Origin: Mycoplasmatota bacterium
GTDB taxonomy: Bacteria; Bacillota_I; Bacilli_A; RF39; UBA660
Assembly (NCBI GenBank): GCA_022774645.1
Contig: JALFKQ010000032.1
Span: 94,253-158,252 of the forward strand
Length of the DNA stretch: 64,000 bases
Direction: 5' to 3'
Part shown: in pieces, positions 23,558 to 52,908 of the stretch
How positions within the stretch are numbered: the stretch's first letter is position 1
Layout of the letters: each line of letters starts with the position of its first letter
Translations under genes and position numbers: made by a program
Notes under the pieces: model-generated
What the model saw: the letters and a program-made list of their open reading frames with translations, nothing else
Database searches by the model: none
What the model was told of the DNA's origin: nothing

Positions 23558-23590
23558 ATTGTATAATTTTAACAGAGTAGAGGAATGTAT

Positions 23591-24985
23591 ATGAAAGAAA
23601 AAAGAATATTATTTATAACTGGAATTATTATGTTATTTTTTATGTCAGTAGGACTTTCTTATTCTTATTTTACTACAACTGTAAGTGGTAATGAAAATGC
23701 AAAAGATATGGTAGTAGAAGCAGGAACATTAAAGTTAGAATACACAGATGGACCAGAAATTACTGCTAAGAATATTAAACCTGGATGGACAATAACGAAA
23801 ACAGTATCAGTAAAAAATACTGGTACATTAGATGCAATATATAATTTAAAATGGAAAGAATTAACAAATACAATTACAAGTGATGAATTAGTATTTGATT
23901 TAAATTGTGAATCATCAACTGACACTTGTTCATATATAAATTTAGAAAATCAAGTAGTGCCATCTTCTTCTGATTTAATTATGGGAGATATAATAATATA
24001 TCCAGGTGAAATACAAACTCTTTCATTAACATTAACATTTAAGGAACTTAATAAAGATCAAAATTATAATCAAGGTAAAAAGTTAAATGGAGTATTAAAT
24101 ATTGAAGAAACAACAACTACTAATGATAACGAATACACAATGTATGCACAGGTTATAAATAAAAATAATGAACCAATAGCTAATACAACAATAGAATTAC
24201 AAAATGAATCAAAGACAGGAACAACAGATGACTCAGGTTATGTAATGATAGATGCTATTAAACCTGGCTCACATACATTACTTGTAAAAAATAGTAGTGG
24301 AAATGTATTAGATACAAGAAGAGTATCAATACAACAAAAGAAAGAATCTGATGTAATTGATAGCAAAGTAATATATGCAGATATAACATTACCTCAATTT
24401 ACCACAACAATAGTATTAAATGATTCAAATAAAATAGAAGAGATGTCTAACCTAATAACACCACCTGATGAGTGTTTTAGTGTTAGTAATGGGGCTATAA
24501 AAAAATATAATCCTAATAACAATGTTAACTGTCCATTAGAGTTAATAATACCTAGCAAAGTTAATGGAAATGTTATTACAAGTATATCAAAAGTAATGTC
24601 AAGTTGTTCATCTTATGCTGGTGCATTTGAGTCTCTTAATTTAAGAAAAATAATAATACCAAGTACAGTAATAACAATAGAAAATTTTGCATTCAAAGAT
24701 AATCAATTAACTAGTGTAATAATACCGGAAGGTGTGACGACAATAAGAACTAATGCATTTGAATATAATCAAATAACAAGTATTATAATACCTAAAAGTG
24801 TAACATCAATAGAACAATCTGCTTTTGCAAATAATAACTTCAAAATGATAAAAATTAAAGAAAAAGCAAAGAGTAGTGAATTTAGCACATATAAACCTAA
24901 TTGGGGTTGGGCAGATGATGTAACTTGTGTCAAGAATAATACTGAGAATGTAGAAAACGGTTGTATTACTTGGGGAGCTGAATAG
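23591..24985 (+). CDS. surface protein: TasA/camelysin-type (SipW-cognate-like) signal and N-domain, CarboxypepD_reg-like module, BspA-type leucine-rich repeats
   Basis: N-terminus ...GLSYSYFTTTVSGNENAKDMVVEAGTLKLEY resembles the TasA/CalY signal and N-terminal motif. TIELQNESKTGTTDDSGYVMIDAIKPGSHTL is also present. C-terminal repeats are IPSTVITIENFAFKDNQLTSVIIPEGVTTIRTNAFEYNQITSIIIPKSVTSIEQSAFANN. ATG 23591 lies 6 nt after GAGGA. Confidence 0.65.
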   Translation: MKEKRILFITGIIMLFFMSVGLSYSYFTTTVSGNENAKDMVVEAGTLKLEYTDGPEITAKNIKPGWTITKTVSVKNTGTLDAIYNLKWKELTNTITSDELVFDLNCESSTDTCSYINLENQVVPSSSDLIMGDIIIYPGEIQTLSLTLTFKELNKDQNYNQGKKLNGVLNIEETTTTNDNEYTMYAQVINKNNEPIANTTIELQNESKTGTTDDSGYVMIDAIKPGSHTLLVKNSSGNVLDTRRVSIQQKKESDVIDSKVIYADITLPQFTTTIVLNDSNKIEEMSNLITPPDECFSVSNGAIKKYNPNNNVNCPLELIIPSKVNGNVITSISKVMSSCSSYAGAFESLNLRKIIIPSTVITIENFAFKDNQLTSVIIPEGVTTIRTNAFEYNQITSIIIPKSVTSIEQSAFANNNFKMIKIKEKAKSSEFSTYKPNWGWADDVTCVKNNTENVENGCITWGAE

Positions 24986-25069: not shown

Positions 25070-25609
25070 ATGTTTAATAATTATAAAGAGATTGTTACTA
25101 AAACTATTATAGGTAAAGGTAAAAAGGTATTTAAAAATGATTATGAAATAGTTGTTGATAAAGATATTAATAATGTACTTGGGTGTTGGGTTATTAATCA
25201 TAACTTAAGGGGTAAGAAAGATAATGATTATATTAAAATAAATGGTAGTTATGATATAAATATTTGGTATAGTTATGATAATAATACTAAAACAGATGTA
25301 GTAAGTAGAAAGATGTTTTATGAAGAAAAGGTTAAAGTTAAAGTAAGAGAGAATACTGAACTAAATGATGAATCAGAAATTATAATAAGAAGTCTTAAGA
25401 ATCCTACTTGTGTAGATGTTAGTAATGAAGATAAAACTATTAAATATACAATATCTAAGGAACTTGGTATAGAAATAGTAGGAGATGAAAAGATAAAGAT
25501 TCCTGTTTCTAATAATGAAGATGATTATGATATTATAGTTGATGAAGATGAAATAAATAATGAAATTGATAAAAGTGTTGATACAAATTATCTAGTGAAT
25601 AAACAGTGA
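25070..25609 (+). CDS. cotE: outer spore coat morphogenetic protein CotE
   Basis: YKEIVTKTIIGKGKK...LGCWVINH...YDINIWYSYDNNTKTDVV is collinear with B. subtilis CotE (YREIITKAVVAKGRK...GGWIINH...YDINVWYSYADNTKTEVV). Acidic C-terminus. Confidence 0.85.
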   Translation: MFNNYKEIVTKTIIGKGKKVFKNDYEIVVDKDINNVLGCWVINHNLRGKKDNDYIKINGSYDINIWYSYDNNTKTDVVSRKMFYEEKVKVKVRENTELNDESEIIIRSLKNPTCVDVSNEDKTIKYTISKELGIEIVGDEKIKIPVSNNEDDYDIIVDEDEINNEIDKSVDTNYLVNKQ

Positions 25610-25660
25610 AAACTGTTTTTTTAATTAATAAAATGTGTTAATATAAATATGGAGGTAGAT

Positions 25661-26152
25661 ATGAAAAAACTATTGTTATTATTAATGTCAATTGTTATGA
25701 TTTTTACTTTAAGTGGTTGTGAAAGTAGTGAGAAAGTAATTAGTATATATGGTGTTGTTAGTAAGAATGAAATTAAAGAAATGAAATATGAATATGATAA
25801 GAATTTAAATATAAGTAAACTTGCTAATGCTTTATCTTTTTGGAGTGGAGCTAATTTTTATTTAGAAACTAGTGAACCAAGTGATAATGTTTTATATGTT
25901 AATTTTTTAGGTAATTCTGATTTTGTTAAGGGTTTAGGTAATGTTAAGAGTAAAAACTTTACTTTTAAAGATGATAATGAACTTAGATTATTTATGTTAA
26001 ATAGTTTAGCATATACTATTAGAAAGAATATTAAAGAGTATGATATATATTTTACTGCTAATGGTAAAAGTATTAATGAATATTTAAGTATTGATGATAT
26101 TGATTTTACTAAAGCTTATAATACTATTGAAAATGAGTTGGTTGTTTACTAA
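25661..26152 (+). CDS. lipoprotein, unknown function
   Basis: Lipobox FTLSGC. ATG 25661 follows GGAGG. The track start 25649 overlaps the RBS. Confidence 0.6.
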   Translation: MKKLLLLLMSIVMIFTLSGCESSEKVISIYGVVSKNEIKEMKYEYDKNLNISKLANALSFWSGANFYLETSEPSDNVLYVNFLGNSDFVKGLGNVKSKNFTFKDDNELRLFMLNSLAYTIRKNIKEYDIYFTANGKSINEYLSIDDIDFTKAYNTIENELVVY

Positions 26153-26199
26153 ACTCTTTTTTGATATTATAATATGCAGTACTGATTAGGGGTGTTAAT

Positions 26200-26697
26200 A
26201 TGAAAGATAGAATAAAAGCTACTTGTTTTTTAATGGCAATGTTAACAGTATTAAATATGAGTGGTTGTGCTAAAAAAGTTAAATGTAGTGAAACTGCTAA
26301 TCATTCTCATTTATATGAATGTTCTATAGATGATGTTACCGTTAAAAGATACTTTACTTCTGAATATGAAGAGAAGAAAGAAGGGGATTTAGTTTTTGAT
26401 AGAACTAAATATTATAGTTTTAGTACTAAAAGATTAAATTTAATAATTGATAATGATCTTGCTAATATGAATGATAATTTTGAATATTTAGCTTATTTAG
26501 AAGAAAATGGATATAAAAATTCTAAGAATAAATGGATTTGTTATTGTATAGATATAGAAGATAATATTTTATGTGATGAGTTTGATGATATTGAAACTGC
26601 TGTTTCTAGTGGTTATTGTTATTTTAAATGTACTGGTAATATTGATGATATAATTTCATTAGAAAAAGGTAAAACATTGACTAAGAGTATTGGATAA
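26200..26697 (+). CDS. lipoprotein, unknown function (Cys-rich)
   Basis: Lipobox LNMSGC. No family recognised. Confidence 0.6.
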   Translation: MKDRIKATCFLMAMLTVLNMSGCAKKVKCSETANHSHLYECSIDDVTVKRYFTSEYEEKKEGDLVFDRTKYYSFSTKRLNLIIDNDLANMNDNFEYLAYLEENGYKNSKNKWICYCIDIEDNILCDEFDDIETAVSSGYCYFKCTGNIDDIISLEKGKTLTKSIG

Positions 26698-26707
26698 TAC
26701 TCTTTTT
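26683..26707 (+). terminator. intrinsic terminator
   Basis: AAGAGTATT-ggat-AATACTCTT followed by TTT. It overlaps the stop codon of the lipoprotein gene. Confidence 0.7.
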
Positions 26708-26709
26708 AA

Positions 26710-26738
26710 TTGACTTTGTGTATCAAATATGATATAAT
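26710..26738 (+). promoter_or_regulatory. near-consensus sigma-A promoter of the J-domain/repeat-protein operon
   Basis: TTGACT (26710-15), exactly 17 nt of spacer, then TATAAT (26733-38). Confidence 0.7.
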
Positions 26739-26768
26739 GTACTAAGTTTATATGGGGGATTGGTTATA

Positions 26769-28385
26769 ATGACAAATAAACAAGCAAGATTGATGTTGAA
26801 AATGGATCTCAATAAACCATTTACTAAGGAAGAATTAACATCAAAATATAGAAAGTTAATTAAAGAATGTCATCCTGATATGCATGCATCTGAGGATGAA
26901 AAAAGCATAGAATTTTATAATAAAAAGGCCACATTATTAAATGAAGCTTTTGCAGTGTTGAAATCTAGTTTAAACAATACTGATTTTATTAATAGAAAAA
27001 GTACTGTTTTAAGTATGATGAAAAGTAGATTTGAGAATTGTAAGGATTCAACTTTAAAAAGACAAATAGTTGATATTTTTTCAACAGTTGTTTTTATTGA
27101 TAGATGTAATGATGATAGTGAATTAGATAAAATGGTTAAAGCATTTAATACTTCTGTTTATGCTTGTTATCAAAAATATGAAACTGACTTTAAAATTAGA
27201 AATAGAATTCCTAGTAATTATTCTAACAATCTTAATTATGATTGTTCTTGTGATGAGTTTATTACTAGTTTAAATGAATTACAATTTTCTTATGATCGTT
27301 TAGTTCAAAATAAAATAAATGGTTCTATATACACATATTTTTCACCTTTTGATTCAGTTTTGTCATCACCTTATCTTGATAATGTAATTGATGATGTTAA
27401 ATATAAACTTCATAATTATAATTTGTCTGTAGCTTTAGAAGAAAATACTTTTGATGGTTTTACATCTTATTTAAGAAGTGTAAAAAAATATTTTGAAAGT
27501 GTTAATCTTGAATATTTTAAAATAAAAAAATTAATTAGTAAGTTACCTGGTAGTTATACTGATAGTGGTACTTTAAAATGTAGATTATTATCTAAATTAA
27601 ATGATTCAATATTTATAGGTAATTTTGATACTGTTAAGGATGAAATTGTAAATTCTGTATACAGTAAGCAAGATGAAATAGTTGCAATTAAAAAGATACA
27701 AAATTATTTAAAATTAAAATCAAGTATAGCTAGTATAAGATGTAAAACTAATCTTAAGTCTGCTGATTTAAATTATGTAAGAAAGATGACTGATAAATGT
27801 GATAATTTAATTAAAATGGCTCTTGATGGTAAATATTGTTTAGAAGATATTTCTATTCTTGAAAATATTACTTTTAGTGATCCTGTTAAGGATAAAATGA
27901 TTTTATCTTTACTTGATAATCAAAGTTTTTCTGTTTATATTAAAGCAAATGATAGATTAGAAAATGATCCTTTTGTATTAAAATCTTCTAATGATGAGTT
28001 TTTATCTGTTGATGAAGATTCTAATGTAGTTATGTCTTCATCTGAGGAAATATCTAAAGATAATGATATGCTATCATTAAATGAATTTGTTAGCTATGGT
28101 AAACCTGTGTTTAGATATATTAGTGATGGTGAAAATGTAGATGGTATTTTATATGAGTATCAAGGTTATGAACTTGTATATAGTTATAATGAAAGAACTG
28201 GTATTATTGAAAGTGTATATGTAAGACCAGTTACTAATCATTTTGGATATAATTATGGTGAGAAGTTTGATATTACTAGTATAATAAATTATCATGTTAA
28301 GAAAATGTTTAAACCATATGTTAGAAAAATACAAAAGAAAAGTAATAATTATAAAACATTGAAAATACAAAAAGTGGGGAAATAA
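26769..28385 (+). CDS. J-domain (DnaJ-like) protein with a large uncharacterised C-terminal region
   Basis: Residues of about 20-70, ELTSKYRKLIKECHPDMH...ATLLNEAFAVLKS, form J-domain helices II/III with the HPD tripeptide. There is no Gly/Phe or zinc-finger region as in true DnaJ. ATG 26769 lies 10 nt after GGGGGA. Confidence 0.8.
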   Translation: MTNKQARLMLKMDLNKPFTKEELTSKYRKLIKECHPDMHASEDEKSIEFYNKKATLLNEAFAVLKSSLNNTDFINRKSTVLSMMKSRFENCKDSTLKRQIVDIFSTVVFIDRCNDDSELDKMVKAFNTSVYACYQKYETDFKIRNRIPSNYSNNLNYDCSCDEFITSLNELQFSYDRLVQNKINGSIYTYFSPFDSVLSSPYLDNVIDDVKYKLHNYNLSVALEENTFDGFTSYLRSVKKYFESVNLEYFKIKKLISKLPGSYTDSGTLKCRLLSKLNDSIFIGNFDTVKDEIVNSVYSKQDEIVAIKKIQNYLKLKSSIASIRCKTNLKSADLNYVRKMTDKCDNLIKMALDGKYCLEDISILENITFSDPVKDKMILSLLDNQSFSVYIKANDRLENDPFVLKSSNDEFLSVDEDSNVVMSSSEEISKDNDMLSLNEFVSYGKPVFRYISDGENVDGILYEYQGYELVYSYNERTGIIESVYVRPVTNHFGYNYGEKFDITSIINYHVKKMFKPYVRKIQKKSNNYKTLKIQKVGK

Positions 28386-30649
28386 TGATGAATGAGTTAG
28401 TGTTAGAAAAGTTATTAAATAGATATGGTATAGATGGTAAAACATTTGTTAAGAATAATCCTAAGGTTGTATCTAGATGTAAGTATGATGATGTAGTTTC
28501 TGCTTTGGATTTTTTAATAGATGAACTTTCTGTATCACCTAGAAATATTTTAAAAACTCCTAGTGTATTGTATTATGGTGTTAATAATTTAAGAGAAAAT
28601 TATAAATATTTAATTGATAATGGTTTTAAACCTTTTGAAATAATAAGAACTTTACATATATTAAATACTGATTCAAATGAATTAAAAAGAACTTTTGAAT
28701 ATTTAAGAGAAAACTATGGTATTAAGCTTGTTAAAAGAACAGCTTCGGTATTAAAAATATCTGTCGGAAGAATTAAAAAAGTTGAAGAGTTATTGGATGA
28801 TAAGTCATTAGTTTTATCAGCAGCTATTTCTAGTTTAAGTATAGATGAAATGAAAAAGACTATTGATTTATGTAATAAAAATGGAATACCTTTAAGAGGA
28901 ATAATATTTAGAAAAAAAGAAAATGAAATTCAAGATATTATTAATGTATGTAAAAAGTATGAAATAAAACCTGTAGGTACAGTATTTCAAAGAACTGCAG
29001 ATGAAGTAGAGAGAATAATATTTATGTGTAGAAAAAATGGGGTAAAACCAGAAGGAAACATATTTTTAAGATCTGCTGATTCTGTTAGTGAGGTTATAGA
29101 TGTATGTAAGAAACATGGAATTAAAATAACTGGCTCTGTGTTTCAAAGAGAAGCTTCTGAAATAGAAGAGATTAAATTATTATGTGATAAGTATGGTATA
29201 AAACCTAATGGTAATGTTTATAGAAGACCAGCTGTTGAAATAGAAGAAATAATTAATACTTGTTTAAAATATGGTATTAAACCAGTAGGTATTGCTTTTT
29301 ATAAAACAGCTGATGAAATAGAAAAAATAGTTTCTGTTTGTAAAAAATATAATATTAAAATGACTAAGAATGTTTTACTTAGAAAGGCTAGTGAACTTGA
29401 GGATATAGTTATTTATTGCCTTAATAATGGTATTAAACCTGAGGGTACGATATTTCAAAGAAAATTTGATGAAATAAAATCTATGAAACAAATTTGTGAT
29501 AAATATGGTATTAATGCTGGAGGAACTGTTTTCTTAAAGAAACCTCGTGATTTAGAACAAGTAATATTATTATGTAGAAAACTTGGTATAAAATGTGAAG
29601 GTGATATATTCTTAAGAACTAAAGATGAAATATCTTCAATAAAGTCTATTTGTGATAAGTATGGTGTTGTTGCGGACGGAATGGTATTTAGAAGAACTCC
29701 AGAAGAAGTAGAAGGTATTTTTGAATTATGTCAGGAAACAGGAATTAAACCAGAAGGAATGATATTTTTAAGAACTAAAGATGAAATAATTGATATTATT
29801 GAAGTTTGTAAAAAATATGGTATTAAAGCGGAAGGTTCAGTATTTTTAAAAACTGCTCCTGAACTTGAAAATATATTATTATTGTGTGCTAAATATAATT
29901 TAAAACCACAAGGAATGATATTTAAAAGAACTGAAGATGAGATTTTAGAATTATTGGATATATGTAGAGAAAATGGAATTAAACCAGAAGGAAACACTTT
30001 CAAATGTTCTCCAGATAAATTAAGAAGATTAATTTCTATAACTAGTGTGCATGGAATTAAATTAGAGGGAACTATATTTGATAAAACATGTGATGAAGTA
30101 ATAAAAATAAAAGAAATATGTGATAGATATGGAGTTGTTCCGTATGGAGTAGTATTTCAAAGGTCATCAGAAGATTTAGAAAATACAATTAAAGTATGTG
30201 AGAAATATGGTTTAAAGAAAGAAGGTTCCGTTTTTAGAAGAACTGCTCCTGAACTTGAAGAAACTTTGAGATTATGTAGAGAAAACAATATAGAAATTTC
30301 AGGTAGTATATTTAAAGTTAAACCTTCAAAGTTATCTAAAACAATTGATTATGTTAAAAGTAATTATGGAGAACAATATTTAACAAGTTTAATATTAAGT
30401 AAGAATATTGAACATCTTAAAGTGGTTTTACCTTATCTTGAAAAAGAGGGATTACTTCCTTATGTTATAAATAGTTCATCAATATTAGATTTAAGATTAG
30501 ATGAAATTATTGAAAGAAAAGAATATATAGAATCTATTGGTGAAGATTTAATAGTTAATGGTAAATTTAATATTATATTTGGTAAAACAAGAAGAAATTA
30601 TGAAAAGTTAAAAAATAATCAAAAACAATTAAAAATGAATATGGAGTAA
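28385..30649 (+). CDS. tandem-repeat protein, 19 x 26-aa units, mTERF-like flanking regions; function unknown
   Basis: The start overlaps the J-protein stop (TAATG). Residues 163-656 are 19 contiguous 26-aa units with consensus C-[KR]-K-Y-G-I-K-P-E-G-x-[IV]-F-x-R-T-x-x-E-[IV]-E-x-I-I-x-[VLI]. Confidence 0.8.
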   Translation: MMNELVLEKLLNRYGIDGKTFVKNNPKVVSRCKYDDVVSALDFLIDELSVSPRNILKTPSVLYYGVNNLRENYKYLIDNGFKPFEIIRTLHILNTDSNELKRTFEYLRENYGIKLVKRTASVLKISVGRIKKVEELLDDKSLVLSAAISSLSIDEMKKTIDLCNKNGIPLRGIIFRKKENEIQDIINVCKKYEIKPVGTVFQRTADEVERIIFMCRKNGVKPEGNIFLRSADSVSEVIDVCKKHGIKITGSVFQREASEIEEIKLLCDKYGIKPNGNVYRRPAVEIEEIINTCLKYGIKPVGIAFYKTADEIEKIVSVCKKYNIKMTKNVLLRKASELEDIVIYCLNNGIKPEGTIFQRKFDEIKSMKQICDKYGINAGGTVFLKKPRDLEQVILLCRKLGIKCEGDIFLRTKDEISSIKSICDKYGVVADGMVFRRTPEEVEGIFELCQETGIKPEGMIFLRTKDEIIDIIEVCKKYGIKAEGSVFLKTAPELENILLLCAKYNLKPQGMIFKRTEDEILELLDICRENGIKPEGNTFKCSPDKLRRLISITSVHGIKLEGTIFDKTCDEVIKIKEICDRYGVVPYGVVFQRSSEDLENTIKVCEKYGLKKEGSVFRRTAPELEETLRLCRENNIEISGSIFKVKPSKLSKTIDYVKSNYGEQYLTSLILSKNIEHLKVVLPYLEKEGLLPYVINSSSILDLRLDEIIERKEYIESIGEDLIVNGKFNIIFGKTRRNYEKLKNNQKQLKMNME
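28871..30352 (+). repeat. 19 in-frame tandem 78-bp coding repeats (diverged)
   Basis: Counted unit by unit from Cys163 (TGT 28871-73) to ...KTIDY (30352). 18 of the 19 units begin with Cys. Confidence 0.85.
30509..30638 (+). repeat. 130-bp segment identical to 32153-32282 (3' ends of the two repeat-protein genes)
   Basis: Base-by-base comparison of the two 3' ends. Flanking sequence is similar but diverged. Confidence 0.85.
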
Positions 30650-30652
30650 GTT

Positions 30653-32293
30653 ATGATTGATGTATTTGATTTAAGTGAGTTGTTGACTGAATATGGAGTT
30701 GATCCTAAAAGAGTATTAAAGAATAATCAAAAAATATTATCAAGAGGTGAATATTTTGGTATTAAAAATATGCTTGATTATTTAATAGGTGAACTTAATG
30801 TTTCAGCTAGAAATATTGAAAAGTGTCCAAGTATTTTATATTCTGATTTGTTTAGTGTTAAAGAAAATTATAACTTTTTAAAGAATTCTGTTATTAAAAA
30901 TAAAGATGTTGTTTCAACTCTTCATATGTTAGGAGTTGATCCTAATGAATTAAAGAAAACTTATGAATATGTTTTAAATAAATATGGTAAAAAGTGTTTA
31001 AGTAATATAACATCTATATTAAGGGTACCGGTTGAAAGAATTAAAGCGATAGAGAGTATGCTTGATGATGAGAGGTTAATAACATCTGCTGCTATATCAT
31101 CTTTAAGTATTAATGATATTGAAAAGGATATACTTATATGTAGAGAAAATGGTGTTAATATTGTTAGAAGTGTTTTCAAGTCATCTCCTAGAGATTTAGA
31201 AGATATAGTTATTACTTGTAAAAAATATGGTATTAAACCTGAAGGAACTATGTTTTTAAGAAATGCAAAAGAACTTGAGAAAATATTTGAAATATGTAAA
31301 GAAAATAGTATAGAACCAAAAGGTACGATATTTTTAAGAAGTCCTTTAGAAATTGAAAAGATTATTAATTTATGTAAAGAACATAATATTAAACCAAAAG
31401 GTAGTGTTTTTTCAAAAACTTCAGATGAAATTCAAAGAACTATTGATATTTGTAAAAAATATAATGTTAAATTAACAAGTACTGTTTTTTTAGGTAGTTC
31501 AAGTGAAGTAGAAAAAATAATCTTGTTATGTAGAAAATATGATATAGAGCCAGAAGGAGCAGTTTTTCAATCATCTGTTGGTAGTTTAGAAAAAGTAATT
31601 TATTTATGTAAAGAAAATAATATTGAACTTAAAGGTATTTTGACGCAGAGACCTATTGAAGATATAATTAGTGTTATTGATTTATGTAATAATAATGGAA
31701 TTAAGCCAGAAGGTAATATATTTAGAAGAACTAAAGAAGAAATATTAGATTTAATAGTTGTATGTAGAAAATATGGAATTAAGTTAAAAGGAACAGTATT
31801 TCAAAGAACAGCAAAAGAAGTAAAAGACATTGTTGAAATATGTAATCGATTTAATGTTTCACCAATAGATAGTATGTTTTGTAAGAAACCTAGTGAAGTG
31901 AAACAAATATTAGAAATATGTAAACAATATAATCTAAAAATTAGTGGAAGTATGTTTGTTATGAAATCTAAATCTATACTAGAATCAATTGATTATGTAA
32001 AAGATAATTATGGTATAGAATATGTTACAGATTTAATAATAAGTAAAAGAGTAAGTTATTTAAAAACAGTTCTTCCATATTTAAAAAGTGAGGGTTTACT
32101 TCCATATGTAATTAATAGTTCATCAATACTTAGTTTAAGATTAGAAGAAATAATTGAAAGAAAAGAATATATAGAATCTATTGGTGAAGATTTAATAGTT
32201 AATGGTAAATTTAATATTATATTTGGTAAAACAAGAAGAAATTATGAAAAGTTAAAAAATAATCAAAAACAATTAAAAATGAGTACGGAGTAA
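30653..32293 (+). CDS. tandem-repeat protein paralog, 11 x 26-aa units; function unknown
   Basis: Same architecture as the upstream gene: a 162-aa N-terminal region, 11 units (residues 163-448) and a 98-aa C-terminal region. GGAG RBS lies in the tail of the upstream gene. Confidence 0.8.
   Translation: MIDVFDLSELLTEYGVDPKRVLKNNQKILSRGEYFGIKNMLDYLIGELNVSARNIEKCPSILYSDLFSVKENYNFLKNSVIKNKDVVSTLHMLGVDPNELKKTYEYVLNKYGKKCLSNITSILRVPVERIKAIESMLDDERLITSAAISSLSINDIEKDILICRENGVNIVRSVFKSSPRDLEDIVITCKKYGIKPEGTMFLRNAKELEKIFEICKENSIEPKGTIFLRSPLEIEKIINLCKEHNIKPKGSVFSKTSDEIQRTIDICKKYNVKLTSTVFLGSSSEVEKIILLCRKYDIEPEGAVFQSSVGSLEKVIYLCKENNIELKGILTQRPIEDIISVIDLCNNNGIKPEGNIFRRTKEEILDLIVVCRKYGIKLKGTVFQRTAKEVKDIVEICNRFNVSPIDSMFCKKPSEVKQILEICKQYNLKISGSMFVMKSKSILESIDYVKDNYGIEYVTDLIISKRVSYLKTVLPYLKSEGLLPYVINSSSILSLRLEEIIERKEYIESIGEDLIVNGKFNIIFGKTRRNYEKLKNNQKQLKMSTE
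31139..31996 (+). repeat. 11 in-frame tandem 78-bp coding repeats (diverged)
   Basis: Runs from TGT 31139-41 (Cys163) through ...ESIDY. All 11 units begin with Cys. Confidence 0.85.
32153..32282 (+). repeat. 130-bp segment identical to 30509-30638
   Basis: Same comparison as for 30509-30638. Confidence 0.85.
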
Positions 32294-32296
32294 ACT

Positions 32297-32569
32297 ATGG
32301 ATATTGATTATGATAAAATAAAAGAAATATATGGAAATGATATACTTTCTGAAATAATATCTAATAAAGAAGATATAATTAAAAATTTATATTATTTTTA
32401 TCAACTTGGTTTTGAAGATGTAGAAGATATATTTGAAAGACAAGTTATGATATTTATTTGTTCTAATGATGAATTTATTAATAAAATAAATAATCTTATT
32501 AATAAAATAGGTAATAATTACATAGATGAAATAGAAAATAATATTGAACTTTTAGATGAATTAAATTAG
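32297..32569 (+). CDS. small acidic protein (90 aa), single mTERF-like motif; function unknown
   Basis: Translationally coupled (GGAG in the tail of the upstream gene, 3-nt gap). NLYYFYQLGFEDVEDIFERQVMIFICSNDEFINKINNLINKIG resembles the flanks of the repeat proteins. Confidence 0.65.
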   Translation: MDIDYDKIKEIYGNDILSEIISNKEDIIKNLYYFYQLGFEDVEDIFERQVMIFICSNDEFINKINNLINKIGNNYIDEIENNIELLDELN

Positions 32570-32591
32570 AAATACGAAAGTATTTCTTTTT
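32568..32591 (+). terminator. intrinsic terminator ending the J-domain/repeat operon
   Basis: AGAAATAC-gaaa-GTATTTCT followed by TTTT. Confidence 0.8.
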
Positions 32592-32619
32592 ATGTTATAA
32601 TATTTTTGAAGGAGTAAAT

Positions 32620-33306
32620 ATGAATCAAGAAAAGATTGGAAAATTTATTAGAGAACTTAGGAAAAATAATAATTTAACACAAGCAGACTTAGCTAATAAA
32701 TATAATGTTACTTATCAAGCTGTTAGCAAATGGGAAAATGGTAAGAATATTCCTGATATATCAATACTAAAACAAATGAGTAAAGATTTTAATATTGATA
32801 TAAATGATTTACTTGATGGAGAAGAAAATAAGAAAAAAGTAAAACCATATTATTTTATTATTGGTTTTGTTATAGTTTTATTTATAATTTTACTTATTAT
32901 AATATTTACTCATAATGAAGATTTTGAATTTAAAACATTAACTACTACTTGTGATGATTTTACTATTAAAGGAAGTATATCTTATAATAAAGATAAATCA
33001 TCTATATATGTATCTAATATTAAATATTGTGGTAAAGAAGATAAAGTTTTATATGACTCTATTAGTAGTACTTTATATGAAAGCCATAATAATATTATTA
33101 AGAAGATAGATGAATATAAGAGTGAAAGTAAGAAATTAATTACATTAGATGATTATTTAAGTGAATTAGAATTTGCAGTTGATAATTATGAATCTAGTTG
33201 TAAAACATTTAGTAGTAATGATTTATATATAGAAATATTAGCAAGTAAAGATGGTAAAACTATTACTTATAAAATACCTTTAACTCTTACTAGTTGTCCA
33301 AAGTAA
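32620..33306 (+). CDS. membrane-tethered XRE-family HTH regulator with extracytoplasmic C-terminal domain
   Basis: IGKFIRELRKNNNLTQADLANKYNVTYQAVSKWENGKNIP is an XRE HTH. A single TM follows (YYFIIGFVIVLFIILLIIIF), then an outer domain of about 125 aa containing Cys. Confidence 0.8.
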   Translation: MNQEKIGKFIRELRKNNNLTQADLANKYNVTYQAVSKWENGKNIPDISILKQMSKDFNIDINDLLDGEENKKKVKPYYFIIGFVIVLFIILLIIIFTHNEDFEFKTLTTTCDDFTIKGSISYNKDKSSIYVSNIKYCGKEDKVLYDSISSTLYESHNNIIKKIDEYKSESKKLITLDDYLSELEFAVDNYESSCKTFSSNDLYIEILASKDGKTITYKIPLTLTSCPK

Positions 33307-33332: not shown

Positions 33333-33358
33333 ATGTTAAAATTAATATGGTGAGATAT

Positions 33359-35191
33359 ATGACAATTGAAGAGATAATAGAAAAGAATTTTAGTTCAAGT
33401 TTTTATGATAGTAATAATTTTGAAGATATATATAATTTTGTAGAAAGTTGTGAGTCTAAACTTACATTAAAAAAATTAGGTATTGAGACTAGTAACATTG
33501 TAAGTTATGTAAAAGGTGAAAAGACTCCCCAATATACTGTTAAATGTGAAAATGATACAGTTACTTATTTATATGATTTTGATAGATTTAAAGAAGGTTT
33601 AACATCACATATATCTAGAAATGTAAGTGAGCTTTCTTTACCAAGTACTTTTTTAAGAGATAATTTTGATTTTTTAAAAGAATTACCAAATTTAAAAAGC
33701 TTAAATATTAATAATTATGGTTCTTTGTCTTTAGAAGAACTTGATTTTCTTTCAGAACAAACAACAGTAAGTAATGTTGAAATGGGATTTTTTCCTTTAG
33801 ATGGTAAAAATAATCCAAAATATATTGGAATAGTAAAAGATGGAAAAACTTATGGTTTTTATGGAAATATTAAATTATCACAGAGTAAATTGCCATCTTT
33901 GAATCCTGATTTTGATTTACTTATGTCATCAAATGAATCTGAAAAGAGTAGAAATATTAAGGTAACAGCTGGTAAATTAACAATTCAGAGTCTTGAAAAG
34001 ATATTTGATTCTTTTGATGAAGATATGCAAACTTGTGATAGACTTGTTGAAGTAAATTGTGATAATGCTAAATATTCTTTTAATATTATTGATGGAATAG
34101 TTAATATTAATATTGAAGATAGTAATGTTGATATAGCAAATGATTTATATGATTTTTTTATAAAAAGAGGTTTAAAAGTAGAAAGTATTATTATGAATTT
34201 GTCTATTAATTATAAAGAACCATTTAATTATATAGATAGAGATTATTCTAAACTTGATAAACTTAATGAAAAAGTTTCACTTAGTGTGAGGGAAAAATAT
34301 ATGTCTATGTCTAATTGGGAAGATTTTAGAAGTCTTGTAGAATCAATGAAGTGGTATAGAAAAATTATTAATGATTATCCATTGTCTCCAGTAGAAAAAT
34401 TAGCTTTTGCCTATGATATATTAAAAACATTTAATTATAACGAGTCACCTGTTAACACTGATGAATCTAGAAATCCAACTAAAATAATAAAGACAGGTCA
34501 TATTGTTTGTGCTGGATATACAAATATGCTTGAAGAAATATTTAGAGAATTAGATTCTAATATTAATATAGGAGAATTTGGTGTCACCTGTTATGAAGAT
34601 GATGATAAAACATTACTTGGTTATCATAGTAGATCAATGGCTTATGTAGAAGATGAGAAGTATGGTATAAAAGGTCTTTATGCTTTGGATCCTACATGGG
34701 ATAGTGTAAAAAGCAAGGGAAATAAAGTTATTGATAAAGATTATACAGCTCTTGATTTATATAGATATTTTATGATTCCATTTAGTGATTATAAAACTGT
34801 GTTTGAACATGATTCTGATATTAGCTTTTTTAAAGGAGATTTATCATATTTAAATAAAGATGTAAGTGATAAATCTATAGATAGAGCAATTGTGACTGTT
34901 TCTAATTCTAGTGAATCTCCAAAAGATGGTACATTACCTCAAGAAATGAGAGATAAAGAAATATTTAATTATGATTTTCGTAATATGTTTGAAGGAAAAA
35001 GTGAAGTAGAAATGTTAAATATGTTTAAAGCTAAAAGAATTCCTAAAGAACAATTAATGGAAATTATAAAAAATGTTAGACAAGCAGAAGGTTATAGTAT
35101 GGATTTGGTTGATGCTGAAATGGAAAAAGTATCTAGAATATATGATAAATATAATACACCACTTGATCCATTAACTGGCAAGATGTTATAG
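33359..35191 (+). CDS. cytoplasmic protein with LRR-like segment and transglutaminase-like cysteine-protease core
   Basis: LPSTFLRDNFDFLKELPNLKSLNINNYGSLSLEELDFL is LRR-like. GHIVCAGYTNML ... GYHSRSMAYVED ... LYALDPTWD matches the Cys-His-Asp transglutaminase-like core pattern. No signal peptide. ATG 33359 follows GGTGAG. Confidence 0.6.
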   Translation: MTIEEIIEKNFSSSFYDSNNFEDIYNFVESCESKLTLKKLGIETSNIVSYVKGEKTPQYTVKCENDTVTYLYDFDRFKEGLTSHISRNVSELSLPSTFLRDNFDFLKELPNLKSLNINNYGSLSLEELDFLSEQTTVSNVEMGFFPLDGKNNPKYIGIVKDGKTYGFYGNIKLSQSKLPSLNPDFDLLMSSNESEKSRNIKVTAGKLTIQSLEKIFDSFDEDMQTCDRLVEVNCDNAKYSFNIIDGIVNINIEDSNVDIANDLYDFFIKRGLKVESIIMNLSINYKEPFNYIDRDYSKLDKLNEKVSLSVREKYMSMSNWEDFRSLVESMKWYRKIINDYPLSPVEKLAFAYDILKTFNYNESPVNTDESRNPTKIIKTGHIVCAGYTNMLEEIFRELDSNINIGEFGVTCYEDDDKTLLGYHSRSMAYVEDEKYGIKGLYALDPTWDSVKSKGNKVIDKDYTALDLYRYFMIPFSDYKTVFEHDSDISFFKGDLSYLNKDVSDKSIDRAIVTVSNSSESPKDGTLPQEMRDKEIFNYDFRNMFEGKSEVEMLNMFKAKRIPKEQLMEIIKNVRQAEGYSMDLVDAEMEKVSRIYDKYNTPLDPLTGKML

Positions 35192-45809: not shown

Positions 45810-46153
45810 TTTTTTAGACAAACGCTGCATTTAAAATGTAGAGGAAAGTCCATGCTCACTCATTCTGGAATGAATGAAAGTGTTCGTGCTAGGGGAATAA
45901 ATAACCCTAGGTAGTACTTTTAGTACTAACGGCGGCGAGGTAATCAAGAACTGATTATATTAGCCATAAAGTGCCATAGAGACGAGATAGTTAGGAATAA
46001 CTATTGTGGAACGCGGTAAACCCCACGAGTGAGAAACCCAAATTTGGTAGGGGAGTGCTTACGAATGAATTAATAAAGGAGTAAGTGAAGGAGAAATCCT
46101 TAGATAAATGTTTGTCACCTTTTAGGTACAGAACATGGCTTATTAAAAATTAT
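45806..46153 (+). ncRNA. rnpB: RNase P RNA, type B (Firmicutes)
   Basis: Universally conserved GAGGAAAGTCCATGCTC, GGAACGCGGTAAACCCC, GAGAAACCCAAATTTGGTAGGGG and ACAGAACATGGCTTA. P2 pairs GACAAAC (45817-23) with GTTTGTC (46110-16). P1 pairs ATAATTTTTTA with TAAAAATTAT. Ends are approximate to about 5 nt. Confidence 0.9.
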
Positions 46154-52831: not shown

Positions 52832-52908
52832 GGGGAATTGGCTCAGTTGGCTAGAGCATCTGCCTTGCACGCAGAGGGTCACCGGTTCGAGTCCGGTATT
52901 CTCCACCA
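52832..52908 (+). tRNA. tRNA-Ala (anticodon UGC), CCA encoded
   Basis: Cloverleaf folded by hand. Acceptor stem GGGGAAT/ATTCTCC has the G3:U70 pair. D-arm is GCTC..GAGC. Anticodon stem is TCTGC/GCAGA with loop CTTGCAC. T-arm is ACCGG-TTCGAGT-CCGGT. Confidence 0.95.

Follow-up and report, generated by a model that had tools for sequence, protein, structure and literature searches.

Recent literature, up to 2026, still holds that prokaryotes lack the mTERF family (PF02536; MTERF1-4 and the plant mTERFs) (PMC12977773). A single study, from 2024, reports distant prokaryotic relatives, the 'prokaryotic mTERF-like' tandem-repeat proteins named pTERF, from metagenome-assembled genomes (MAGs) of ruminant-gut Bacillota (Nucleic Acids Res 2024, PMC11417379). 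According to this study, pTERF1 (MBQ3414883.1) recognizes ACTNNNAGTC (Kd 1.87 nM) and pTERF2 another motif, the ligand being double-stranded DNA (dsDNA) and the affinity nanomolar; pTERF1 has a 35-residue period (TR_35_C32_2), three helices per unit and 3-11 units (PMC11417379). A second group for comparison comprises the TALE and TALE-like proteins (Xanthomonas TALEs, RipTALs, Burkholderia Bats, MOrTLs and STAR), with two-helix units of 33-35 residues that stack into a superhelix. Here, we analyzed a four-gene unit on contig JALFKQ010000032.1 of a Mycoplasmatota bacterium (assembly GCA_022774645.1), within a stretch of 64,000 nucleotides that we call the window (positions 94,253 to 158,252 of the contig; all coordinates of the unit are counted from the first letter of the window). 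The unit encodes a J-domain protein, two paralogous tandem-repeat proteins (REP) and a small acidic protein (S90). The comparative data indicate that it is composite, i.e., an ancestral monocistronic J gene followed by an inserted three-gene cassette (REP, REP, S90). The cassette belongs to a large mTERF-like family of uncultured gut Bacillota.

The two REP proteins proved to be paralogs, as had been proposed, being 38-41% identical and each consisting of exactly 162 N-terminal residues, 19 or 11 units of 26 residues, and 98 C-terminal residues. Positions C1, G10 and F13 of the unit are almost invariant, the DNA of the arrays has a matching 78-nt period (60-72% identity), and the ortholog of the 19-unit protein in locus L003 is 86% identical, with an equal unit count. 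The 3' ends of the two genes (30414-30670 and 32058-32314) share 87% identity over 257 nt, with 146 of the last 150 nt matching; given that the remainder of the proteins is only around 40% identical, this points to recent gene conversion or recombination between the paralogs.

Structural modelling bore out the alpha-helical solenoid that the repeat spacing had suggested. An AlphaFold2 (AF2) model of the 11-unit paralog, built on a 38-sequence alignment, was all-alpha (predicted local distance difference test score, pLDDT, 91.5; predicted TM-score, pTM, 0.54), with two helices of 13 and 5 residues (the latter GxIFx) in each unit, joined by the 6-residue loop YGIKPE, and with the previously noted T/S-x-x-E box capping the long helix. 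Upon comparison of this model with the PDB by Foldseek, TALE-DNA complexes were returned first (E 5e-5 to 1e-3, probability 1.0; 3ugm and dHax3 best), followed by the MTERF1-DNA complex 3n6s (E 7e-3, probability 1.0, TMt 0.38) and then by MTERF4 and MTERF3; designed helical repeat proteins were also among the matches. A fold search of BFVD yielded weak matches only, mostly to phage tail or tape-measure proteins (best E 0.07, probability <= 0.16).

The mTERF-like character of the REP flanks, which had been proposed from short motif patterns, was upheld by PF02536, by a profile search of the PDB and by Foldseek alike. PF02536 matched 19 of 29 N-flanks at E <= 1, and two relatives exceeded its gathering score of 23.1 bits (P0085 with 25.2 bits and another N-flank with 28.8 bits). 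The N-flank profile retrieved MTERF3 (3m66, E 4.2e-5), MTERF4 (E 0.005-0.065) and, more weakly, MTERF1 from the PDB, and the 15 matches listed were all mTERF chains except for two weaker unrelated ones. When the full-length REP and S90 proteins were searched against Pfam and NCBIfam, only spurious sums of short matches were obtained (FAD_binding_4, BKACE, Cas2, SAP and others), none of them containing a stretch that was significant by itself. As modelled, REP is a continuous alpha-solenoid that begins with an mTERF-type N-flank, continues as an amplified array of helix-loop-helix units of 26 residues, each corresponding to a shortened mTERF motif, and closes with a conserved C-flank.

Compared with pTERF, REP proteins are likewise cytoplasmic tandem helical-repeat proteins of uncultured gut Bacillota MAGs that carry an mTERF annotation and have an AF2 solenoid resembling MTERF1, and in both families the arrangement of units differs between homologs. 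The original prediction that no bacterial system of this composition had been described is, as such, outdated, pTERF having been reported in 2024, though with 35-residue units and no mention of a small partner (PMC11417379). REP units are shorter (26 residues, or 28 and 29 in sister clades), contain two helices and number roughly 2-33 per array, which sets them apart from pTERF by unit length; furthermore, the mTERF matches of REP sit in the N-flank and not in the repeats, and neither a small acidic partner gene nor tandem paralogs are mentioned for pTERF in the text available (PMC11417379). With the eukaryotic mTERF proteins, REP shares weak but specific N-flank matches, in its modelled form a superhelical helical-repeat fold, and the motif pattern L..xG(I/F)....I......P.(I/L)L, but the mTERF motifs are of around 30 residues, three-helical, degenerate and non-tandem, whereas the two-helix units of REP are amplified in perfect phase. 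The likeness to TALEs lies in the two-helix units stacked into a superhelix, which gave the best Foldseek matches, in a single hypervariable residue in each unit that adjoins a conserved basic or polar one (in REP, position 14 followed by R/K15), and in the near-identical units with two variable positions of a 29-residue sister clade. There is, however, no sequence similarity (11-14% identity), the REP unit is shorter, its hypervariable residue ends the short helix whereas that of TALEs lies at position 12/13 in the repeat-variable diresidue loop, TM-scores are only 0.2-0.3, and REP has neither secretion signals nor features for targeting a eukaryotic host. Set beside pTERF by description, REP probably works in the manner of pTERF, mTERF and TALE proteins.

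TALEs owe their programmability to such a single hypervariable residue in each unit. In order to characterize variability within the arrays, we analyzed 710 phased units in 56 arrays. In self-similar arrays, the within-array mismatch at position 14 was 0.83, i.e., 2.9 times the mean of 0.29, and that at position 11 was 0.54, while positions 1 and 13 were fixed. Position 14 is mostly occupied by L, R, K, Q or Y and is immediately followed by the conserved R/K15; position 11 is S, T or N. Between the window proteins and their L003 orthologs, positions 11 and 14 had changed in five of 60 cells, as against 38 of 150 for five other variable positions (Fisher p = 0.005). Positions that differ between units yet are held within a given unit across orthologs are as expected of specificity determinants. 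The repeat regions of the two window proteins carry net charges of +9 and +11. Within the family, the sister clade with 29-residue units (L059 9992-12760; L069 3628-5652) has the same N-flank, a different C-flank and its own type of S90 downstream, and its L059 array consists of 23 units of the form LFTSxTLAxAKLEDIQAILQSQEYKDHPE that are near-identical except at two positions, a TALE-like pattern.

The REP family is far larger than the 2024 pTERF report conveys. Homologs of the 11-unit paralog formed at least 259 clusters at 90% identity, with E-values down to 1e-136 and identities of 35-46%; all were unnamed, and nearly throughout they came from gut metagenomes. A scan of species-representative genomes yielded 71 loci, in MAGs of uncultured Bacilli, Clostridia, Erysipelotrichaceae and 'Tenericutes'; the sources were the guts of humans, ruminants (RGIG MAGs included), rabbits and pigs. 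Using a hidden Markov model (HMM) of S90 over the loci, we found that S90 adjoins REP in 57 of 77 loci and that 16 of the other 20 end at contig ends, leaving four complete loci without S90. Between one and five REP paralogs are present per locus, nearly always with a single S90, in the order S90-REP or REP-S90. By these counts, the conserved unit is REP plus S90, and not J plus REP. The family is marked by shorter units, tandem expansion of paralogs and a constant small acidic partner, the last of which has not been described previously. In goat-gut Bacilli MAGs, five tandem REP paralogs of up to 1115 residues, with 28- and 26-residue units mixed, accompany a single S90 (L042 1124-13890; L052 2563-13899).

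For S90, an indexed homolog search returned seven clusters, and the window protein is 60% identical to its L005 counterpart, vs. 44% for REP. The exact S90 sequence of the window recurs on 170 contigs. The suggestion that S90 is itself mTERF-like held up in part, the support being weak: its profile aligned to residues 63-120 of the REP N-flank (hhalign E 1e-4, probability 58%), and on the strength of that weak alignment S90 may be a free-standing pair of mTERF-like motifs.

The cassette occupies at least 10 different chromosomal contexts, in which the neighbors vary by lineage and are otherwise unrelated housekeeping genes (ileS, holA, ruvB, mutL, miaA, ftsAZ and others). A recurrent third partner was considered and rejected, since clustering of the neighbors gave only such lineage-specific housekeeping genes. 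In three loci situated between mutL and miaA, the gene immediately 5' of the cassette encodes a Fic-domain protein (L005 3142-4068, L007 3634-4569 and L010 2030-2965), with HPYTDGNGR as its active-site motif and S-x-x-x-E-N as an inhibitory motif. Searches of viral contigs (IMG/VR), phages (INPHARED) and plasmids (PLSDB) turned up no relatives, and PADLOC and PHROGs, searched for defence and phage families, gave nothing meaningful.

The case for a composite unit came from loci that carry the J gene without the cassette. Directly after the J stop codon, both L001 and L080 have the terminator hairpin of the unit (GAAATAC-N4-GTATTTC-T5) and the promoter of a downstream helix-turn-helix (HTH) regulator gene, whereas in the window the alignment of the junctions places the J-type hairpin and the HTH promoter after the S90 gene instead. 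The sequence 28385-32569 is, by this comparison, a 4.2-kb block that separates the J stop codon from the J terminator, which indicates that the terminator at the end of the unit ancestrally belongs to the J gene. REP and S90 were not detected by tblastn in L001, L002, L079 and L080, nor in the gene tables of L081-L084. J without REP was found in seven loci (L001, L002, L079, L080, L081, L082 and L083) from at least four lineages, i.e., every other J lineage examined, and about 70 loci have REP-S90 without any J gene; the four-gene arrangement is confined to the window lineage (L014, L003 and L004, with J proteins 76-100% identical). A horizontal-transfer composition bias of the cassette was also looked for and rejected, its G+C content and third-codon-position G+C (GC3) matching the flanks.

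The original prediction had proposed that a dedicated DnaK-targeting J-domain module acts on, or together with, the repeat proteins, and had set a co-occurrence survey in advance as a test that could refute it. Outside the window lineage, J and REP were not seen together in the loci examined, and by comparative genomics the coupling is refuted: the J gene and the repeat genes do not appear to constitute one system. Ancestrally, the J gene would have had its own operator-bearing promoter and its own terminator, in a cotE ... J - HTH synteny. In this lineage alone, the REP-REP-S90 cassette would then have entered between the J stop codon and the terminator, such that the J promoter would now drive it. 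A single gain is the more parsimonious account, several losses being the alternative. For annotation, what looks like a single operon would be split into a cotE-linked J/HTH pair of spore-forming gut Bacilli and an inserted mTERF-like cassette.

Overall, we lean towards a reading in which the cassette represents an mTERF-like tandem-repeat family of uncultured gut Bacillota that was inserted behind a J gene, with REP binding nucleic acid and S90 acting as its partner. REP is probably a nucleic-acid-binding protein. It would bind along the solenoid, most likely to dsDNA rather than RNA, with the backbone contacted by the conserved basic K/R residues of unit positions 2, 3, 7 and 15 and with position 14, helped by position 11, conferring the specificity of each unit; the 19-unit and 11-unit paralogs would then recognize different targets. 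S90 would serve the REP paralogs as a common partner bound to a conserved flank, either capping them or regulating their binding. By analogy with mTERF1, the most economical guess as to a biological role is sequence-specific regulation or roadblocking of transcription. A more far-reaching version, which we regard as speculative and unlikely, is that the 26- (28-, 29-) residue units constitute a modular code of one nucleotide or base pair per unit, read via positions 14 and 11, on a compact TALE-like programmable scaffold of independent mTERF-derived origin, with S90 as an obligate acidic gating or capping subunit and possibly a nucleic-acid mimic. If such a code exists, the REP scaffold would be more compact than TALEs, and bacterial relatives of mTERF would bear on the origin of the organellar mTERF family.

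Several observations weigh against the reading that we favor. The pTM of the model is only 0.54, so that its superhelical geometry is uncertain, and the Foldseek TM-scores are low (0.2-0.38), the likeness being one of unit and local superhelix and not of global shape. The window proteins themselves fall below the PF02536 cut-off, with 17.1 bits (E 0.0028) for the N-flank of the 19-unit paralog and no match for that of the 11-unit paralog. The best sequence matches, MTERF3 and MTERF4, act on rRNA and ribosome assembly and not on DNA, and pTERF1 has three-helix units of 35 residues as opposed to the 26 of REP, the two families being compared by description. A hypervariable surface position is equally expected of a protein-binding repeat scaffold. 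With regard to the insertion, the choice between it and repeated loss is made by parsimony, and in one distant locus, L066 (10001-13023), downstream of ftsA-ftsZ, a REP gene with 29-residue units and an S90 gene are followed by a full-length HTH homolog (41% identical to that of the window) with no J gene. A 689-aa gene upstream in L066 was considered as a possible REP paralog and rejected.

Among the alternatives, RNA binding would give REP a role in ribosome assembly or RNA processing on rRNA or structured transcripts, as for MTERF3, MTERF4, plant mTERF4 and mTERF9. The N-flank is indeed closest in sequence to MTERF3 and MTERF4, the cassette is often co-directional with its neighbors among translation and RNA housekeeping genes (ileS, miaA and rluA-like), and the predicted targets of pTERF are enriched for RNA-metabolism terms (PMC11417379). 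We nevertheless hold it to be unlikely, since the top fold matches of REP are protein-dsDNA complexes, the sole prokaryotic relatives tested bind dsDNA (PMC11417379), and a factor whose target is conserved rRNA would not usually vary so widely in copy number (one to five paralogs) and in units (2-33). A scaffold for protein binding, comparable to ARM, HEAT, TPR or ankyrin repeats, with the hypervariable positions reading peptides and S90 as ligand or adaptor, would account for such surface positions on a conserved helical repeat, which are typical of protein-binding repeats, as well as for the constant protein partner and the designed helical repeat proteins among the Foldseek matches. The specific sequence and fold signals of REP, however, go to mTERF and TALE, which are nucleic-acid binders, and its basic repeat regions keep K/R at conserved positions; together with the DNA-binding precedent of pTERF, this makes a scaffold improbable in our estimation.

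The cassette might alternatively be a mobile or conflict element (a defence system, an anti-plasmid silencer or a selfish element) whose arrays track changing foreign sequences. Its presence or absence in close relatives, its many chromosomal contexts, the tandem amplification of paralogs with varying unit numbers, the Fic-domain gene immediately upstream in L005, L007 and L010, and the gene conversion at the REP 3' ends would all fit, but neither integrase nor transposase accompanies it, the conserved pair lacks an enzymatic effector, its GC3 is like that of its neighbors, and the defence, phage, viral and plasmid collections named above gave no matches or relatives. This explanation strikes us as quite improbable. 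Least probable of all, and very doubtful indeed, is that the four genes form one functional system in which DnaK is brought specifically to the repeat proteins by the J protein, or the J protein and the repeat proteins act together. Such a system would be in keeping with a J domain with an intact HPD motif, with the promoter and terminator common to all four genes, with the TAATG overlap between the J gene and the first REP gene, and with the conservation of the arrangement in L003, L004 and L014. Against this are the seven loci with J-family genes and no REP, the roughly 70 with REP-S90 and no J, and the position of the J terminator immediately 3' of J in the aligned loci that lack the cassette (L001 and L080); moreover, J evolves faster than REP (76% vs. 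86% identity to the L003 copies), and there was no sign of a link between the evolution of the two.

The J protein is better understood from its own neighborhood. Its J domain was confirmed, with HPD present and a Pfam DnaJ (PF00226) score of 28.5 bits vs. a cut-off of 27.8, and HPD is conserved in 15 of 17 aligned members of the J family. In the AF2 model (pLDDT 87.3), the J domain and its HscB-like helices lead into a long helical bundle, and the C-terminus forms a beta domain. Its best Foldseek match was HscB (4it5; probability 0.96, E 0.07), with no match beyond the HscB-like N-terminus; the other 450 or so residues are without a known relative. While the J protein shares with HscB a J domain bearing HPD and then the helices, it scored at best 31.5 bits against the HscB equivalogs of NCBIfam (cut-off 189), and the isc-operon context of HscB was not seen, the neighbors being cotE, lipoprotein-like genes and the HTH gene. 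Relatives of the J protein are scarce, with seven clusters in an indexed search and 22 representatives among 1.84 billion proteins. Six of these relatives were located in their genomes. Those that are 48% identical (P0127 and P0125) lie in loci of the order cotE, two small genes, J, and then directly the HTH gene, and those that are 28-29% identical (P0137 and P0142) in the order cotE - DHH - J - HTH; one relative, P0135, occupies a different genomic place. The HTH proteins of L001, L002 and L080, encoded immediately 3' of J, are 81-86% identical to that of the window where J is only 48% identical, indicating that the J protein evolves unusually fast. An HTH gene also follows J in L081, L082 and L083, such that the cotE-J-HTH synteny exists without REP in six other loci. 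It is more likely that the function of the J protein is tied to its cotE and HTH associates than to REP. The string of cotE, DHH or small lipoprotein-like genes, J and membrane-anchored HTH is conserved in spore-forming gut Bacilli (window 25070-33306; L001, L080, L081 and L083). cotE had been placed directly upstream of the J gene; two small genes in fact separate them.

Features of the unit and its immediate neighbors are listed in Table 1. The four ORFs were all present and co-oriented as claimed, and the junctions were likewise as originally given: the genes overlap by TAATG at 28385 and are 3 nt apart at 30650 and 32294, where GGAG stands in the tail of the preceding gene. The start of the J gene was revised from the TTG at 26760 (26760-28385 being the ORF as first called) to the conserved ATG.

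Table 1. Positions of the genes and signals of the four-gene unit and of the flanking genes, in window coordinates.
Feature	Position	Strand	Basis or detail
cotE	25070-25609		Upstream of the J gene, two small genes between
Promoter of the J gene, sigma-70-type, TTGACT-17-TGnTATAAT	26710..26738	+	Best regional match, 11/12
Gene 1, J-domain protein, 538 aa from conserved ATG	26769..28385	+	Open reading frame (ORF) and Pfam DnaJ
Gene 2, REP paralog, 754 aa	28385..30649	+	N-flank 28385-28870, 19 units 28871-30352, C-flank 30353-30649
Gene 3, REP paralog, 546 aa	30653..32293	+	N-flank 30653-31138, 11 units 31139-31996, C-flank 31997-32293
Gene 4, S90, 90 aa, acidic, isoelectric point 4.05	32297..32569	+	ORF; S90 HMM
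Intrinsic terminator, GAAATAC-GAAA-GTATTTC then T5	32568..32591	+	RNA fold and conservation
HTH regulator, XRE-type, membrane-anchored, 228 aa	32620..33306	+	Pfam HTH_3, E 2e-15

In a window of 24.7% G+C, a single promoter match says little: 78 consensus sites were found vs. 73 expected from shuffled sequence. The predicted J promoter was nonetheless substantiated by conservation, the hexamers and the spacer being kept upstream of J genes whose products are as little as 28-30% identical (four aligned J loci). A perfect palindrome (TATCA-AATA-TGATA, 26721-26734, within 26719-26736) lies in the spacer, overlaps the extended -10 element and is invariant across the aligned J loci over the same range of protein identity; TGTATCANNNNTGATA has a single exact site within the window, at the J promoter. 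The palindrome is probably an operator, for which the conserved downstream XRE-type HTH protein is the obvious candidate binder. Of the terminator that had been called strong, the existence was corroborated and the strength was not: its 8-bp stem is A/U-rich (-8.2 kcal/mol, z -3.6). The hairpin was missed by a scan based on G+C content, yet it is phylogenetically conserved (two loci, L001 and L080).

Just upstream of cotE, the window encodes a secreted protein (23585-24985) with a camelysin-like N-terminus, a carboxypeptidase-regulatory-like domain and BspA-type leucine-rich repeats (LRRs). Across the whole window, Rfam at gathering thresholds identified only the class B RNase P RNA (264.6 bits) and one tRNA (45810-46147 and 52832-52905, respectively). 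Downstream of the HTH gene lies a gene for a 614-aa acidic protein (33347-35191) that has no family match except a weak LRR hint and that was found only in the window and in its closest relative, L014; the sister loci carry other genes between HTH and uvrB.

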